From contig NZ_JAIRAU010000047.1 in the NCBI RefSeq assembly GCF_020073745.1, positions 29,990 through 93,989 of the forward strand: a stretch of DNA of 64,000 nt, read 5' to 3'. The position numbers and the translations under genes were made by a program. Shown here piece after piece: positions 5,617 to 40,774 of the stretch. This DNA is from Nannocystis pusilla. GTDB lineage: Bacteria > Myxococcota_A > Polyangia > Nannocystales > Nannocystaceae. Under the pieces are notes generated by a model. It was not told the DNA's origin, ran no database searches, and saw only the letters and a program-made list of their open reading frames with translations. The stretch's first letter is position 1. Every line of letters begins with the position of its first letter.

Positions 5617-6839
5617 TCCGACTCTGCGACGGAAGCCGTGAAGACGTAGGTGTCCGTCTCGAATACAACGTCGTCAACCACGATCAGGTCGGGATCTCGC
5701 CTTCCGAAGGCCGTGATGGAGTTACCCGCCGTCACTTCGAAGGGAACCGAGCCGGTGACGTCGACCATGTTCCCGGTGACACGCACCCAGATCGAGCCGG
5801 GAGGGAACTCGACACTGGAGCCGTCGGACATACCTGCCGCCGGGGTGATGAGGTTGATCTCGATGTCCTCGAGGTCCGAGCTTCCGTACACCACGTCCTC
5901 GACCTGGAGGCTCAACGTGTCGATCATGAATACGCAGAGCGGATCGAAGCAGGCGTAGTCGGTTGTTGTGATCGTACCCGAAGCCTGCGGCGCCACGAAC
6001 GCGGCTCCGTCGGTGATCTCGATCTCGCTGTCCTCGACAACGCAAGATTGACGCTCCTTCGTCGGAGGCTGGTTCTTCGCCTCCGTGCAGTTGTCCGTGT
6101 TCGTCTCGAAGTCGATCTCGGCGGACGTACACTTGAGATCGAGGACTGCGTCGGCGAAGCACCCCCCTTTCAACACGCCGAGATCCTGTACACAACCCGC
6201 GCTGCCGAGGTTGAGAGTCACCCCCGAACCGGAATCCGCGACGATTTGCACACACAAGTCGAAGTTCTCCAGCAACTTATCCCGCCAGTACTTTACAGAC
6301 TGGGCGATGTTATCTTCACAAACATTAATTTCGATCTGCGAGGGAGGCGGGGTTCCTTCCGAACACTTGTCGTCGGGAGGATCCAGGATCAATGCCTCAA
6401 ATCGCGCCAGTGCATCGCTACAAGCGGCATGTGCACAGTCGACGAGACAGGCTGCATCGCCTTTCTCTTCTCCTTCCGGATCCGCCTCGATCCCCACCTC
6501 GCAGCACGTTTCGACCCGAGGGCCCTCAGTCGGGTCGTCGGAGTTGAAAGGAATGATGCCATCCGCCCCTTCGGTTTCTTCACTGTCAATCAAGATCACT
6601 TGATTTGACTCGACACTGGGCTCGCAGTCGATCTCGTCTTCGTCGTTGAAGTCACAGACAACGAAGCGCAATTCGCCCTGCACCGCCCCTGCGCAGCCGT
6701 ATCGCTGGCCTGGACCGTCCGTCCCTTCGAACACTTGCTGGGCACAGAGCCCACCGGGAGGGGGCAAATCGGCGATTATCGTCGTCTCACCGACCGTCGC
6801 CCCCGTGGCGACCTCGTCGTCTCCACATCCCCCCAACAT
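5601..6839 (-). CDS. acidic Cys-rich hypothetical protein (no signal peptide found)
   Basis: 412-aa ORF with clearly lower GC than the flanks and an in-frame TGA immediately upstream of the ATG. Asp/Glu- and Cys-rich. Composition suggests a foreign origin. Confidence 0.45.
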   Translation of the reverse strand: MLGGCGDDEVATGATVGETTIIADLPPPGGLCAQQVFEGTDGPGQRYGCAGAVQGELRFVVCDFNDEDEIDCEPSVESNQVILIDSEETEGADGIIPFNSDDPTEGPRVETCCEVGIEADPEGEEKGDAACLVDCAHAACSDALARFEALILDPPDDKCSEGTPPPSQIEINVCEDNIAQSVKYWRDKLLENFDLCVQIVADSGSGVTLNLGSAGCVQDLGVLKGGCFADAVLDLKCTSAEIDFETNTDNCTEAKNQPPTKERQSCVVEDSEIEITDGAAFVAPQASGTITTTDYACFDPLCVFMIDTLSLQVEDVVYGSSDLEDIEINLITPAAGMSDGSSVEFPPGSIWVRVTGNMVDVTGSVPFEVTAGNSITAFGRRDPDLIVVDDVVFETDTYVFTASVAESECEPL

Positions 6840-36145: not shown

Positions 36146-37501
36146 ATGTTCGTCGCGCATCGTCGCCGTCTCGCCGCCGGTCGGGGTCTTCTCCTCCTCC
36201 TGCCTCTTTTCGGCGCCTGCCGCCCCGCCCGCGAGACCGCGCCGCCGGTCGAGGCCCCCGCGGCCACGAGCGACCTCCAGCGCGCCTACGACCTCCCGCG
36301 CACCGACCTCGCCTGGACCGCCCGCGACTACATCAAGGCCCGCGACGTCCTCGTCCGTCTCGAGCGCGAGCGCCCCGAATTGCTCCCGCGCCTCGACGGT
36401 CCCGACGCCGCGCTCATGGCCCGGCTCACCGGGCTCGCCGACGTCGAGGCCGCCGCCGGCGGCGTCGCCGACACCGACGAGCTGCTCGCCTTCAGCCAGG
36501 CCGGCGCCGACATCCTGCACATCTACAGCGCCCGCGCGCTGACCCGCAACGAGTACGGCCGCGAGTACGTCGCCGTCGCCGTCGCCTACTTCAAGCTCGG
36601 CGTCCTCCAGTTCGAGGCCATCCTCGTCGCCGAGAAGCTCGACGAGGCCGCCCTGCGAGCCAACGACGTCCGCCGCCAGGCCTTCGTCGAGGTCCGCTTC
36701 CACCTCGCGCGCGGCGTCCACGACGTCCTCGCCAGCGCGCTCGCCCTGCCCCGCGTCATCGACCCGGCCCACACCGCAGCCACCCTCGCCCCGATCGCCG
36801 CCGACGTCGCCCCGTGGTTCCTCCCCGAGGAGCGCGACCGGATCCTCGACCTCGCCGATCGCCTCGCCGCCGCCGGCGTCCCCGACCCCGACCTCGCCAC
36901 CTTGCGCACCGCCTTCGCCCCCGATCGCGAGGCTCACCCGATCGTCGACGCCTTCGCCGAGGAGCACCGCGAGTTCCTCGACAAGAAAGAGGCGCTGCTC
37001 GCCGCCGTCGCGGCCGGCGATCTCACGCCGGTCGAGGTCGGCCGCGAGGGCGAGTGGACCCGCTGGGCCTTCCCCGAGGCTGGCTTCTCGGCCGCCTTCC
37101 CCGCCAGACCGAACGCGCAGAAGCAGAGCCACACCGCGAGCGACGGCGTGGCGATGACGACCCGCACGCTCGGGCTGAAGCAGGCCGGGCGGATCTGGCG
37201 GCTCGCCAGCTGCATCACCCGCGCCCAGCCGATCGCCGGCCGCACCCGCGACGACGACGTCAAGAGCATCGCCGCGACGATGCACCTCGAGGGGCTGCGC
37301 CCGATCACCGTCGAGGGCGCCGCCGGCCTCGAGGGCAGCCTCACCACCGACACCGCCCACGGCCTCGTCCGCGTCGTCGGCCTGTCCGACACCACCTCCT
37401 GCATCGTCAGCATCGACGTCCCCAGGGACCTCGCGCGGGAGCTCGACGGCGAGATGCGGCGCTTCGTCGACTCCTTCCGCCTCGCCGGCTTCCGCGGTTG
37501 A
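36146..37501 (+). CDS. lipoprotein, function unknown
   Basis: MFVAHRRRLAAGRGLLLLLPLFGAC lipobox. 451 aa. No recognisable catalytic motif. Confidence 0.5.
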   Translation: MFVAHRRRLAAGRGLLLLLPLFGACRPARETAPPVEAPAATSDLQRAYDLPRTDLAWTARDYIKARDVLVRLERERPELLPRLDGPDAALMARLTGLADVEAAAGGVADTDELLAFSQAGADILHIYSARALTRNEYGREYVAVAVAYFKLGVLQFEAILVAEKLDEAALRANDVRRQAFVEVRFHLARGVHDVLASALALPRVIDPAHTAATLAPIAADVAPWFLPEERDRILDLADRLAAAGVPDPDLATLRTAFAPDREAHPIVDAFAEEHREFLDKKEALLAAVAAGDLTPVEVGREGEWTRWAFPEAGFSAAFPARPNAQKQSHTASDGVAMTTRTLGLKQAGRIWRLASCITRAQPIAGRTRDDDVKSIAATMHLEGLRPITVEGAAGLEGSLTTDTAHGLVRVVGLSDTTSCIVSIDVPRDLARELDGEMRRFVDSFRLAGFRG

Positions 37502-37588
37502 GCCCTCGCGCACAGCCGTGCAGCGATCTGCGTGGCCGCCCGCTGAGCCTCGCGCGGCATCGGCCGCGACGTGGTACCTCTGCGGGGC

Positions 37589-38089
37589 ATGGGATTCTTC
37601 GACAAGGCCAAGCAGTTCCTCGGCGGCAAGAACATGGCGAGCGTCGCCATCACCGTCATCGAGCGTCAACCGGCGGAGACCGCCACCTTTCCGGTCACCG
37701 ACTCGGTGCTCAAGGGCACGATGGTGATCACCGGCCAGCAGGACTGCATTCTGCTGGCGACCAAGTACGAAGTGTGGCTGTACATCAAGAAGGACGACGT
37801 CGAGTCGCCGTTCCTCGTCGTCGCCGAGAAGGATCCCGATCCCAACGTCAGCTACTCGGACAGCTGCCTCAAGATGCCGTGCGACCTCAAGCCCGGGCAG
37901 GTCATCACCCAGCCGTGGATGGTGAGCGACGTCGACCTCGCCGGCATCCTCGCGCGCAACGGCTTCCCCGATCCCAACGCCGCCACACGTGACCCGCGAG
38001 TGCGGCTCGTCGTCAAATGCATCGCCGACGTCAAGGGCTCGCCGTTCGATCCGAGCGCGGAGGTCACCGTCCGCCTCGCGCCGGCCTGA
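37589..38089 (+). CDS. hypothetical cytoplasmic protein
   Basis: Start MGFFDKAKQFLGG, with an alternative ATG at 37571. Moderate GC3. No domain recognised. Confidence 0.4.
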   Translation: MGFFDKAKQFLGGKNMASVAITVIERQPAETATFPVTDSVLKGTMVITGQQDCILLATKYEVWLYIKKDDVESPFLVVAEKDPDPNVSYSDSCLKMPCDLKPGQVITQPWMVSDVDLAGILARNGFPDPNAATRDPRVRLVVKCIADVKGSPFDPSAEVTVRLAPA

Positions 38090-38157
38090 ATCGCGCATGC
38101 TGTCCCCGGGGCCGTGCGCGCCCCTGCGCGCGTCCCCGTGGCACATTCGCCGGCACG

Positions 38158-38778
38158 ATGAACATCGACCTCTCCAAGTTTTTGACCGTGGCCGCGCTCA
38201 TGAGCCAGGGCCTCGGCACAGCCGCCTGCACGATCAATCTCGGCAACGGCCTGACCGACACCAACATCGGCCCCGAGACCTCGACCACGAGCACGACCGG
38301 CGCCACCGACGCTACGACCATCACCGACGGCGGGACCGAGGGCACCGCGACCGGCACGGACACGAGCGTGCCGACCACCACCGACGCGCCGACCAGCACC
38401 GACGCGACCGCCGGCACCGCCACCGACGCCACTACCGGAACCGCCACCGACGCCACCACCGGCGAGGGCTTCGTCTGCAGCGACGGCACCGCGCTCGAGA
38501 ACCCCGCCTGGGTCTGCGATGAGAACCCCGACTGCCCCGACGGCTCCGACGAGGTCACCGGCTGCGGCCTCGACGCCTTCACCTGCAGCGGCGACAAGCA
38601 GGAGATCCCCGCGACCTGGGCCTGCGACGAGGTCCCCGACTGCGCGGACAACTCCGACGAGGTCACCGGCTGCGGCGAGGAGGCCTTCACCTGCGCCGAT
38701 GGCCTCGAGATCCCGGCGGCCTGGAAGTGCGACACGGCCCAGGACTGCGCCGACGGCTCCGACGAGGCCGACTGCTGA
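38158..38778 (+). CDS. lipoprotein with Thr-rich linker and three LDL-receptor class A-like modules
   Basis: MNIDLSKFLTVAALMSQGLGTAAC lipobox. Three repeats fitting the LDLa consensus C-x-D-G-x-x-I-P-x-x-W-x-C-D-x-x-x-D-C-x-D-x-S-D-E (e.g. FTCSGDKQEIPATWACDEVPDCADNSDEVTGC). Confidence 0.65.
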   Translation: MNIDLSKFLTVAALMSQGLGTAACTINLGNGLTDTNIGPETSTTSTTGATDATTITDGGTEGTATGTDTSVPTTTDAPTSTDATAGTATDATTGTATDATTGEGFVCSDGTALENPAWVCDENPDCPDGSDEVTGCGLDAFTCSGDKQEIPATWACDEVPDCADNSDEVTGCGEEAFTCADGLEIPAAWKCDTAQDCADGSDEADC

Positions 38779-38787
38779 ATAGCCCCG

Positions 38788-38826
38788 GGGACGTGTCCTT
38801 TTCGACATGCCCCGAAGCACATGACC
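38788..38826. repeat. three RCATGYCC units between convergent genes (gggacgtgtcc / gacatgcccc / cacatgacc)
   Basis: Read directly after the LDLa-lipoprotein stop. Confidence 0.6.
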
Positions 38827-38851
38827 ACCAGGCGGCCGCGCGGGCCCGCCG

Positions 38852-40090
38852 TCAGCCGGCGCTCTCGCCGAGGATCCGCCGCACCTCGACCACGTCGGAG
38901 AACGGCCGCGTCTGTCCGCGGCAGACCTGGCCCTCCTCGTGGCCCTTGCCGGCGATGACGACCACGTCGCCGGCGCCGGCCTCCGCGAGCGCACCCGCGA
39001 TCGCCCGCGCCCGATCGAGCTCGATCGTCCACGTCGCCCGCCGGCCCTGCAGGCCCTCGCTCACCATCGCCGCGATCGCGGCCGGGTCCTCGTCGCGCGG
39101 GTTGTCGCTCGTCACCACCGCGACGTCCGCGTGCGCACCCACGGCCTCGCCCATCGGCGCCCGCTTCTCCGGCGTCGAGTTGCCGCCCGCGCCGAACACC
39201 ACGATCACGCGCCCCGCCGCGCCCGCCAGCCGCCGCGCCGTCGCGCACGTGCAAGCCAGCGCGTCCGGCGAGTGCGCGTAGTCGACGGCGATCGTCGGCC
39301 GGCCCGCCCCGTGCAACAGCACCTCGAAGCGGCCCGGCACCACCGGACAGGCCGCGATCCCGTGCACCACCGCGGTCGCGGGCAACCCGGCCGCCAGCCC
39401 CGCGAGCGCGGCCGCCAGCGCGTTCTCGCCGAACACCTCGCCGACCATCCGCGTCGTCAGCACCCCGCCGAGCGCCGTCGCGGCCGGCGACGGCTGCAGC
39501 AGCACGCGCGTCCCCGTCGGTCCGACCTCGATCGCCGCCGCCTCGAGGTCCGCCGCGCGCAGCCGCGGGCCGCGGCCCGGCGCCGCGAACCAGCGCCGCT
39601 CCACGTCGCCGGGGATCGCCTGGTCGACGTACAGCGCGTGCTTGTCGGCCGCGTTGAGCACCGCCGCGCGCCCGGGGCCCAGGTGCATGAACAGCTGGGC
39701 CTTGGCCGCGAGGTAGTGCTCCCAGCTGCCGTGCGTGCCGAAGTGGTCGTCCGAGAGGTTGGTGAACACGCCCAGGTCGAACCGCCAGTTGCGCGCGTAG
39801 CCCTGCGCCAGCGCGTGGCTGGTCGTCTCGATCACCGCGTAGCGACAGCCGCGCGCGTGGGCCCGCTCGAGCGTCGCCACGAAGTCGGCGAACCGCTTGC
39901 CGCGCGGCCACGCCTCGTCGTCGAAGGCCACCCCGAGCGTCGACACCTGCAGCACGTGCAGCGCCGCCGTGCGCACCGCCGCCGCGATCATCCACGTCGT
40001 CGACGTCTTGCCGTTCGTGCCGGTGACCCCGAACGTGAACATCGACTCGGCCCACGGCGCCGCCGCCGCGACCGGGCGCGCGGCGCTCAC
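38852..40090 (-). CDS. Mur ligase family protein (MurE-like central and C-terminal domains, short N-terminus)
   Basis: GVTGTNGKTSTTWMI P-loop, DYAHSPDAL and C-terminal IAGKGHEEGQ, all typical of MurE-type ligases. Only about 20 residues precede the P-loop. Confidence 0.65.
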   Translation of the reverse strand: MSAARPVAAAAPWAESMFTFGVTGTNGKTSTTWMIAAAVRTAALHVLQVSTLGVAFDDEAWPRGKRFADFVATLERAHARGCRYAVIETTSHALAQGYARNWRFDLGVFTNLSDDHFGTHGSWEHYLAAKAQLFMHLGPGRAAVLNAADKHALYVDQAIPGDVERRWFAAPGRGPRLRAADLEAAAIEVGPTGTRVLLQPSPAATALGGVLTTRMVGEVFGENALAAALAGLAAGLPATAVVHGIAACPVVPGRFEVLLHGAGRPTIAVDYAHSPDALACTCATARRLAGAAGRVIVVFGAGGNSTPEKRAPMGEAVGAHADVAVVTSDNPRDEDPAAIAAMVSEGLQGRRATWTIELDRARAIAGALAEAGAGDVVVIAGKGHEEGQVCRGQTRPFSDVVEVRRILGESAG

Positions 40091-40147: not shown

Positions 40148-40774
40148 TCAGTCGCCGCGGCAGGCCGCCAGCAGCCGCTCGATCGCCGCCCGGTCCTTCT
40201 CGCCGCGGCGGGCGCCGGGCAGCTCGGTGCCGCTGGCGACGTCGAGCCCGGCCGGCCGCACCTGCTGGATCGCCAGGGCCGCGTTGGCCGGCGTGATCCC
40301 GCCGGCCAGCCACACCTCGAGCGGCGCGAGGCGCTGCACCGCCGCGGCGGCCCAGCCCCAGTCGGTCGTCTGGCCGGCGCCGCCGTAGCCGGGCACCGCG
40401 GCGTCGAGCAGCGCGCGGGCCGGGCGGGGCGTCGGCGCCCGCAGCTCGGCCAGCGCCGGTGTGCCGCGGACCACCCACAGGTACGGCAGCCCGAAGCCCG
40501 TCACCTCCTGCGCGCCGACGATCTGCACGAGGTCGAGCTGCAGCACCTCCGCCGCGCGTCGCACCTCTTCGGCCGTCGGCTCGACGAACACCCCGACGAG
40601 CTCGAGCCCCGGCGGCGGCCGCACCTCGGCCAGCAGCGCCTCGGCCGCGGCCAGCGTCAGCCCGCGGCGCGAGCCGCTCCACAGGTTGATCCCGACGGCG
40701 TCGACGCCCAGCTCGGCGCAGGCCGCCAGGTCCTGCGGCCGCGTCACCCCGCACACCTTGAGCTTCACGGACAT
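40148..40774 (-). CDS. trpF: phosphoribosylanthranilate isomerase
   Basis: MSVKLKVCGVTRPQDL ... typical PRAI TIM-barrel sequence. The ATG lies inside an exact GGACATGTCC palindrome. Confidence 0.85.
   Translation of the reverse strand: MSVKLKVCGVTRPQDLAACAELGVDAVGINLWSGSRRGLTLAAAEALLAEVRPPPGLELVGVFVEPTAEEVRRAAEVLQLDLVQIVGAQEVTGFGLPYLWVVRGTPALAELRAPTPRPARALLDAAVPGYGGAGQTTDWGWAAAAVQRLAPLEVWLAGGITPANAALAIQQVRPAGLDVASGTELPGARRGEKDRAAIERLLAACRGD

Follow-up and report, generated by a model that had tools for sequence, protein, structure and literature searches.

A Predicted Lipoprotein of Nannocystis pusilla Carrying Three Four-Cysteine LDLa-Type Modules

The Locus and Its Coding Status

The DNA analyzed here, referred to as the window, is a 64,000-nucleotide stretch of Nannocystis pusilla (contig NZ_JAIRAU010000047.1, positions 29,990 to 93,989 of the forward strand). 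An open reading frame (ORF) on its plus strand, 38158..38778, encodes a 206-residue protein that an earlier note had described, from the letters alone, as a bacterial lipoprotein with three LDL-receptor class A (LDLa) modules. The ORF list and the translation bear out its coordinates and length, and the product, judged by its sequence, is a member of the LDLa superfamily in a reduced prokaryotic variant with two predicted disulfides per module. The features of the gene are as follows, aa standing for amino acids.

38158..38778, plus strand: LDLa-type lipoprotein gene, stop codon included; assigned from the ORF, the translation, the GC content at third codon positions (GC3), PF00057, and ortholog starts
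38158..38229, plus strand: predicted type II signal peptide with lipobox, recognized by a PROSITE-like lipoprotein regular expression; K7 in the n-region; Cys24 (38227-38229) is the predicted lipidated residue
38230..38469, plus strand: low-complexity tether of 80 aa, assigned by composition; 31 Thr, 12 Gly, 10 Ala, and 8 Asp, no Lys or Arg
38470..38565, plus strand: LDLa-type module 1, aa 105-136, FVCSDGTALENPAWVCDENPDCPDGSDEVTGC; Cys 107, 120, 126, and 136
38566..38673, plus strand: LDLa-type module 2, aa 137-172, GLDAFTCSGDKQEIPATWACDEVPDCADNSDEVTGC; Cys 143, 156, 162, and 172
38674..38775, plus strand: LDLa-type module 3, aa 173-206, GEEAFTCADGLEIPAAWKCDTAQDCADGSDEADC; Cys 179, 191, 197, and 206; best Pfam stretch

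The GC contents of the first, second, and third codon positions of 38158..38778 are 56%, 61%, and 95.7%, respectively, in a window of 72.7% GC, which indicates that this frame is coding and that its codon usage is native. An alternative in-frame start at 38017 would yield a longer ORF but would overlap the upstream gene, and 38158 is taken as the start because the orthologs share the opening M[NK]IDL.KF. The modules are visible in the DNA as a tandem repeat with a period of 108 nt, 2.5 copies, and 78% matches. A six-frame motif scan of the window detected no LDLa motifs beyond these three modules, and a promoter and terminator scan of 37400-39000 yielded nothing useful. PADLOC returned no match for the LDLa gene or its two neighbors, and membership in a defense system was rejected on this result.

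A collection of 15 billion proteins contains neither this exact protein nor the exact N. radixulma, N. exedens, N. punicea, and Enhygromyxa salina SWB005 orthologs, and the sole copy from cultured strains recovered in a homology search of proteins was that of Nannocystis sp. ILAH1. The same collection does hold other N. punicea and E. salina proteins, ligases included. The absence of the LDLa protein where other proteins of the same genomes are present points to a gene that is probably unannotated in several Nannocystis and Enhygromyxa genomes. The orthologs at L011:5701-6318, L007:5713-6315, L006:5704-6315, and L017:5698-6306 seemingly have no deposited annotation, no near-identical match having been found for them.

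These missing proteins, together with the long antisense ORFs that overlap the locus, would be compatible with 38158..38778 being a chance ORF in high-GC DNA rather than a gene. This explanation is effectively refuted by the Pfam match (E = 1.8e-24), the GC3 of 95.7% in this frame, the retention of every Cys and cage residue across 20 orthologs with changes in-frame only, and the existence of gene calls for it in Nannocystis sp. ILAH1 as well as in metagenomes; the ORF is a real gene.

LDLa-Type Modules with Four Cysteines

The LDLa assignment made in the earlier note was sustained. PF00057 matched three stretches of the protein, with a score of 86.1 bits (cut-off, 24.1) and E = 1.8e-24; the best of these stretches aligns residues 172-206 with profile positions 3-37. 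Nothing else in Pfam exceeded its threshold on this protein (LDLRAD1_C remained sub-threshold), and NCBIfam provided no match with E below 0.26. Other Cys-rich or Ca2+-binding repeats, namely the Myxococcus cysteine-rich repeat TIGR02232 and thrombospondin type 3, were rejected for want of a profile match. A phmmer search against all PDB chains retrieved only LDLa-bearing proteins (megalin, LDLR, VLDLR, ApoER2, LRP1, CD320, and factor I). A precursor of a bacteriocin or of a ribosomally synthesized and post-translationally modified peptide had been considered for the richness in Thr and Cys; it was dropped in view of the length of 206 aa, the folded LDLa modules, and the occurrence of a YcaO protein near the ligase (see below) at one locus only.

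The details of the repeats depart from the first description. Three tandem repeats and all three of the motif strings quoted for them are present, but their period is 36 aa, not about 38. Six Cys had been claimed for each repeat, whereas the total of 13 comprises the lipobox Cys24 and 12 others, i.e., four per module, and the protein terminates at the last Cys of module 3 (Cys 206). The Cys spacing differs from that of the LDLa disulfide pattern in that the canonical C1 and C3 are missing from every module. In HMMER alignments to megalin, the Cys residues of the query sit on the canonical C2, C4, C5, and C6, while the C3 position is occupied by L113, E149, and E184 in modules 1-3, respectively. 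Module 1 carries a Thr at the C1 position. In modules 2 and 3, this position falls on the final Cys of the preceding module (C-G-L-D-A-F-T-C) because the modules abut without a linker; as C3 is absent, such a Cys can serve solely as C6 of the previous module.

A signature comparison led to the same result. The PROSITE-type LDLa signature, which we take to be C-[VILMA]-x(5)-C-[DNH]-x(3)-[DENQHT]-C-x(3,4)-[STADE]-[DEH]-[DE]-x(1,5)-C and to start at C3, has no full match in the window protein or in any ortholog, whereas its C4-to-C6 part matches all three modules of the window protein and every ortholog module. The bacterial six-Cys control L043 displayed 10 full matches. A canonical six-Cys LDLa was therefore rejected on the Cys count, the HMMER alignments, and the signature test.

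The acidic Ca2+ cage proposed in the earlier note, defined here by an Asp after C4, an Asp before C5, D-x-S-D-E after C5, and an aromatic residue two positions before C4, is intact in all three modules: W118/D121/D125/D128/D131/E132 in module 1, W154/D157/D161/D164/D167/E168 in module 2, and W189/D192/D196/D199/D202/E203 in module 3. Ca2+ would be bound by the side chains of these cages, as predicted from the residues retained.

Structural modeling of the three-module region with AlphaFold2 from a 10-sequence alignment gave a mean predicted confidence (pLDDT) of 83.4 and displayed the expected LDLa fold. A Foldseek search of this model against the PDB returned only LDLa-module-bearing chains among its top 50, with probabilities of 0.99-1.0 and E values down to 1.5e-9. 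The TM-scores of about 0.3 are explained by the free placement of the three beads, of which one superposes at a time. The Pfam score, the matches to solved structures, and the predicted fold thus agree that the modules are of LDLa type. Canonical LDLa modules contain six Cys, paired as C1-C3, C2-C5, and C4-C6. By analogy with this pairing, from which the connectivity in the model is deduced, we infer two disulfides per module (C2-C5 and C4-C6), and the implied pairs would be 107-126, 120-136, 143-162, 156-172, 179-197, and 191-206.

Predicted Envelope Features and Orthologs in Nannocystaceae

The N-terminus MNIDLSKFLTVAALMSQGLGTAAC agrees with the lipobox claim: it satisfies the PROSITE-like lipoprotein rule, which presumably asks for an n-region with basic residues, followed by a hydrophobic h-region and a lipobox whose final Cys falls between positions 15 and 35, here Cys24. 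All 20 orthologs retain this Cys, and the regular expression is satisfied by the window protein and 16 of these 20. Lipidation, processing, and localization of the LDLa lipoprotein are predicted on this basis. The surface anchoring through a Thr-rich tether that had been suggested is accordingly plausible as far as the lipobox rule goes, the surface location itself being presumed. The window protein (38230-38244) and the orthologs also share conserved hydrophobic or beta-branched residues after the lipobox Cys (TINL, LITL, IIVT, LLTI); this stretch could be a sorting signal, or the N-terminus could act as a signal anchor.

The Thr-rich spacer likewise stands, with 31 Thr in 80 aa, and part of its DNA (38397-38463) is a 24-nt tandem repeat. 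Ortholog tethers are 59-80 aa long and 22-89% identical in sequence (just 22-40% outside the genus), Thr-rich in Nannocystis and of (GD)n type in Enhygromyxa. The modules are better kept than the tether sequence, at 41-92% identity. Among the sequences compared, tether length is conserved while its sequence varies freely. The window protein carries a net charge of -36, with 3 Lys and no Arg; at the 7.1% Arg background of neighboring genes, the chance of finding none in 206 aa is 2.8e-7. The net charge of the 20 orthologs ranges from -26 to -59, with 0-3 Lys or Arg in the mature part. So few basic residues are consistent with a head whose ligands carry basic groups and whose pockets must not be filled by the protein itself.

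A scan of species-representative prokaryotic genomes with two narrow peptide patterns built from five close sequences gave 247 pattern matches, of which 142 stretches were confirmed by tblastn. Full-length orthologs occur in every sampled Nannocystis species, i.e., N. radixulma (the closest, 88% identical), N. exedens, N. punicea, N. bainbridge, N. pusilla, and Nannocystis sp. RBIL2/ILAH1, as well as in three Enhygromyxa salina strains and several Nannocystaceae metagenome-assembled genomes (MAGs). The Cys totals of the 20 orthologs fit 1+4n (mostly 13, with 17 for four modules and 9 for two), which implies that the modules always contain an even number of Cys; indeed, there are four per module in the window protein and all 20 orthologs. 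Asp at C4+1, C5-1, and C5+2 as well as S/A-D-E are kept in every listed ortholog module; the orthologs also conserve the aromatic residue that precedes C4 and, in the first two modules, the C-D-E.

Two relatives are irregular. The ortholog of Nannocystis pusilla Na p29 (L009:5701-6312) does not have the MNIDL.KF start, and its frame opens with TSTSPILSVAALMSQG; its 5′ end may reflect a frameshift, an assembly error, or another start. P0005 (L085:1569-2240), a called gene of 223 aa on a 3.1-kb contig of JGI metagenome 3300043098, joins the first ~105 aa of the Mur ligase to a (GD)n tract, after which come three LDLa modules with four Cys each. Either an assembly chimera or a deletion within a co-directional ligase-LDLa pair of the Enhygromyxa type could account for it.

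The Neighboring MurE-like Ligase and Gene Context

Two neighboring features on the opposite strand are referred to below.

38852..40090, minus strand: MurE-like ligase of 412 aa, convergent with the LDLa gene; Pfam Mur_ligase_M and Mur_ligase_C only, NCBIfam
40148-40774, minus strand: trpF, with trpC upstream of it

A protein named from Nannocystis pusilla matches the ligase at 100% identity, and the ligase scores above the NCBIfam cut-off of the murE subfamily. MurE chains in the PDB align to it only from about residue 100 onward, which indicates that it has no UDP-binding N-terminal domain; its best 120 relatives all measure 391-439 aa. The translation retains the P-loop and a DNPR motif, the latter of which we take to be the motif that binds meso-diaminopimelate (mDAP) in E. 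coli MurE. In Nannocystis, this short ligase lies at the tail of a trpE-G-D-C-F gene row.

ORF clustering of 14 loci revealed just two genes shared across genera, the ligase in 13 loci and, under the ORF filter used, the LDLa gene in 10, without a third conserved neighbor. On the same 14 loci, tblastn found the LDLa gene in all and the ligase in all but one. The pair is convergent in Nannocystis. In E. salina SWB005 (L017), it is co-directional with the ligase upstream and a gap of 119 bp, and in the other two E. salina strains, the two genes lie about 2 kb apart. The pair was also detected in two more distant genomes, with ligases 62% (L086) and 67% (L089) identical. The remaining neighbors are heterogeneous by Pfam (radical SAM, M28-PDZ peptidase, FG-GAP, and kinases). 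The linkage between ligase and LDLa gene is real; a functional coupling of the two is conjecture.

A sister clade of ligases, 61-64% identical, is not accompanied by an LDLa gene; there, the ligase gene overlaps a gene for an NlpC/P60 peptidase by 4 bp, which suggests a pair for murein-peptide recycling. The loci concerned are L087/L088:4001-8994, L090:5001-7111, and L091:5001-7171, with a peptidase of the NlpC/P60 (SH3_16) type. A VgrG-type gene follows in L087 and L088, and the L090 peptidase has no signal peptide. Homologues of the NlpC/P60, PALP, PQQ, and AIRS proteins of these loci were not found in the window.

Several other neighbors were recorded. Upstream of the LDLa gene, window positions 37571-38089 (plus strand) encode a 172-aa protein without a Pfam, NCBIfam, or PADLOC match, which is 92-96% identical among Nannocystis species, far above the conservation of the LDLa gene, and has no homologue beside the LDLa gene in other genera. 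In L003:6427-10500 (metagenome ERZ27257534), the short ligase is followed not by the trp genes but by a same-strand 173-aa protein, an Amidohydro_2 enzyme, a YcaO protein, and an 83-aa ORF, a row that is possibly a peptide-modification cluster. In L089, a predicted 190-aa lipoprotein (6182-6754, minus strand) lies between the ligase and the LDLa gene; it consists of (EA)n and a long (GD)n tract, followed by a Cys-rich C-terminal domain unrelated to LDLa.

Wider Distribution and Origin of the Modules

LDLa modules had been described as only sporadically seen in bacteria, which is an understatement in view of the 142 confirmed stretches obtained with two narrow patterns alone. The bacterial matches of the protein search all bear the four-Cys module, and Myxococcota lipoproteins contain arrays of up to ~25 such modules (L040). 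Among Myxococcota lipoproteins, four Cys per module is the usual form. Myxococcota also encode canonical arrays with six Cys per module; on Nannocystaceae contigs of 58 and 301 kb, for instance, a lipobox is followed by 12 of them. Arrays of 7-13 six-Cys modules were noted at L043:5143-7212, where the array follows a lipoprotein signal peptide, and at L053, L028, L032, L038, L041, L052, L060, L062, and L070, all of which are contigs from Myxococcota MAGs and reach lengths of 301 kb. In Marine Group II archaea (Poseidoniales), many repeats have just two Cys, F-x-C-x-D-G-x-x-I-P-x-x-W-V-N-D-G-x-x-D-C-x-D-G-S-D-E. These repeats belong to large surface proteins (L049, L061, L066, L071, and L084, Poseidoniales or Thermoplasmatota MAGs), in which C4 is replaced by Asn and C1, C3, and C6 are missing, with the D-C-x-D-G-S-D-E cage complete; in L049, they adjoin repeats resembling thrombospondin type 3.

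The earlier note had read the architecture as borrowed from eukaryotes, in the sense of an LDL-receptor-type domain set that was acquired horizontally and captures eukaryote-type ligands. LDLa modules are most abundant in Metazoa, and the solved structures matched by sequence and by fold are all eukaryotic. Against this stand the native codon usage (GC3 of 95.7% in a window of 72.7% GC) and the inheritance of the gene throughout Nannocystaceae with kept context. Furthermore, the module itself is unlike the metazoan form, having four Cys and failing the signature that starts at C3, and Pfam detected no EGF, YWTD, or other LDLR-family domain. The borrowing is weakened further by the range of forms, four-Cys modules being usual in Myxococcota lipoproteins, six-Cys arrays occurring alongside them, and Marine Group II archaea having modules with two Cys: a cage that stays constant while the disulfide complement varies argues against a recent loan from animals. 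We regard this origin as very unlikely, and a recent transfer from eukaryotes is not supported by the sequences; the ultimate source of the module may have been prokaryotic or eukaryotic.

Proposed Mechanism and Alternative Functions

The interpretation that we favor, as a somewhat better than even proposition, is that of an envelope lipoprotein conserved in Nannocystaceae that presents Ca2+-dependent LDLa-type modules for a cationic envelope ligand. Briefly, the protein would be exported and then lipidated at Cys24, and the flexible tether of ~80 aa, made of Thr, Gly, Ala, and Asp, would hold out three back-to-back modules of 36 aa. Each module retains the C-terminal lobe, i.e., the aromatic residue followed by C-D-x-x-x-D-C-x-D-x-S-D-E-x-x-C, but has lost the N-terminal C1-C3 disulfide. 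The lobe would be clamped by the two disulfides C2-C5 and C4-C6, and the side chains of its conserved Asp and Glu residues would bind one Ca2+. Next to the Trp or Phe, an acidic pocket may then dock a positive group of the ligand (Lys, Arg, or an amine), as in LDLR-family receptors, with three modules in series providing avidity. LDLR-family modules bind a Lys of the ligand in such a pocket, PDB 2fcw being the established case, and this entry is among both the phmmer and the Foldseek matches of the window protein. Capture of a cationic ligand is thus proposed by analogy with these receptors.

Several points weigh against this interpretation. Position -3 of the lipobox is Thr instead of the classical Leu, the strict regular expression is failed by 4 of the 20 orthologs, and the residues after the Cys are hydrophobic (T/L/I-I-x-L), which makes a signal anchor or an unusual sorting signal possible. 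The canonical Lys-binding triad is incomplete, with Asn, Val, or Ala instead of Asp at C4+3, and, in the first two modules, a conserved Glu at C4+2 in place of the usual Gly; these differences make another binding mode, and another class of ligand, possible. Moreover, full-text literature searches returned no relevant paper, and hence no experiment, on prokaryotic LDLa, and the phmmer search of PDB chains found no prokaryotic LDLa structure.

Two other functions were considered for the same architecture, both of which we judge unlikely. The lipoprotein might work with the adjacent MurE-like ligase, its modules binding the free amine of mDAP or of murein peptide stems, either as a tether from the outer membrane to peptidoglycan or as a muropeptide binder, and with the ~80-aa spacer setting the periplasmic reach. 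The ligase is the sole retained neighbor (13 of 13 Nannocystaceae loci compared) while the others change, and the linkage survives the change of orientation in Enhygromyxa (L017, same strand, 119 bp) and holds in the distant L086 and L089. The ligase also keeps DNPR, presumably for mDAP binding as in E. coli MurE, its sister clade is translationally coupled to an NlpC/P60 peptidase, which ties the family to murein peptides, and the spacer stays at 59-80 aa despite its sequence change. However, the convergent genes of Nannocystis are not co-transcribed, a cytoplasmic ligase could be linked to an exported lipoprotein only indirectly, and adjacency inside one family is possibly inherited rather than selected; LDLa binding to peptidoglycan has no support, and the sister-clade peptidase partner without a signal peptide points to cytoplasmic recycling. 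Alternatively, the protein may be a polyanion, i.e., a tethered sink for Ca2+ or other cations or an acidic stalk rigidified by Ca2+, with no specific macromolecular ligand. The net charge of -26 to -59 in all orthologs, the (GD)n tether of Enhygromyxa, the three Ca2+ cages per chain, and the missing third acidic residue of the canonical Lys-binding pocket are consistent with this role, but plain charge needs neither the aromatic residue before C4 nor the C-D-E of modules 1 and 2, both of which are conserved. In addition, the Thr-rich tether of Nannocystis is just mildly acidic, and three sites per molecule amount to a small buffering capacity.

A bolder proposal, for which we see quite a small chance, is that the LDLa-type Ca2+ cage would be an old prokaryotic amine-recognition module in a graded series of six-, four-, and two-Cys forms, and that the Nannocystaceae lipoprotein and ligase would form a conserved two-gene cell-wall unit, the tethered modules of which bind the free amine of mDAP or of murein peptide stems in a Ca2+-dependent manner, so as to connect the outer membrane to peptidoglycan or to capture muropeptides.

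Apparently, two disulfides can suffice for the binding unit of animal lipoprotein receptors, and in archaea a single one. If so, the essential core of the module would be its Ca2+ cage, which bears on LDLa folding and on the design of minimal binders. As the modules are entrenched and diversified in Myxococcota, the question of the origin of LDLa is reopened. Surveys of predicted proteomes would undercount this lipoprotein family because the gene is probably missing from several annotations, and the stable pairing with an unusual MurE-like ligase is a concrete lead to function.

Comparison with Known Systems

The closest structurally characterized relatives are the metazoan LDLa modules (PF00057), e.g., LDLR LA3-4 with RAP (2fcw), megalin (8jut), VLDLR, and CD320, with which the window modules share the Pfam family, the predicted fold, the tandem use, and a C-terminal lobe that has an aromatic residue before C4 and Cys at C2, C4, C5, and C6. 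They differ by the absence of C1, C3, and the first disulfide, and they abut linker-free with a 36-aa period, such that the last Cys falls at the C1 position of the next module. Modules 1 and 2 also carry Glu for the near-universal Gly at C4+2, and the Asp at C4+3 is missing. In contrast to LDLR-family receptors, the window protein is a small bacterial lipoprotein without EGF, beta-propeller (YWTD), or transmembrane parts.

Other four-Cys LDLa-type lipoproteins of Myxococcota (P0006, P0007, P0009-P0012, P0014-P0016, L040 with ~25 modules, L039, and L064) share the motif F-x-C-x-D-G-x-x-I-P-x-x-W-x-C-D-x-x-x-D-C-x-D-G-S-D-E-x-x-C and, where the N-terminus is visible, have lipoprotein-type N-termini. 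Unlike the window protein, most of them either begin with a globular, Cys-rich domain or carry far more modules, and they have variable inter-module spacing, C-D-G instead of C-D-E, and no ligase linkage. The six-Cys arrays of Myxococcota (L043 and L053) and the two-Cys repeats of archaea have the same cage and aromatic residue in tandem within secreted or anchored proteins; the former match the full PROSITE-type signature and the latter keep C2 and C5 only, with the window protein between these extremes.

E. coli LpoB, a tethered envelope lipoprotein with a long disordered linker, offers an analogy rather than a homology. The window protein has no sequence or fold relationship to LpoB but resembles it in layout, with a small folded head joined to a lipid anchor through a long flexible linker, and by this analogy, the conserved length of its tether suggests a set reach.

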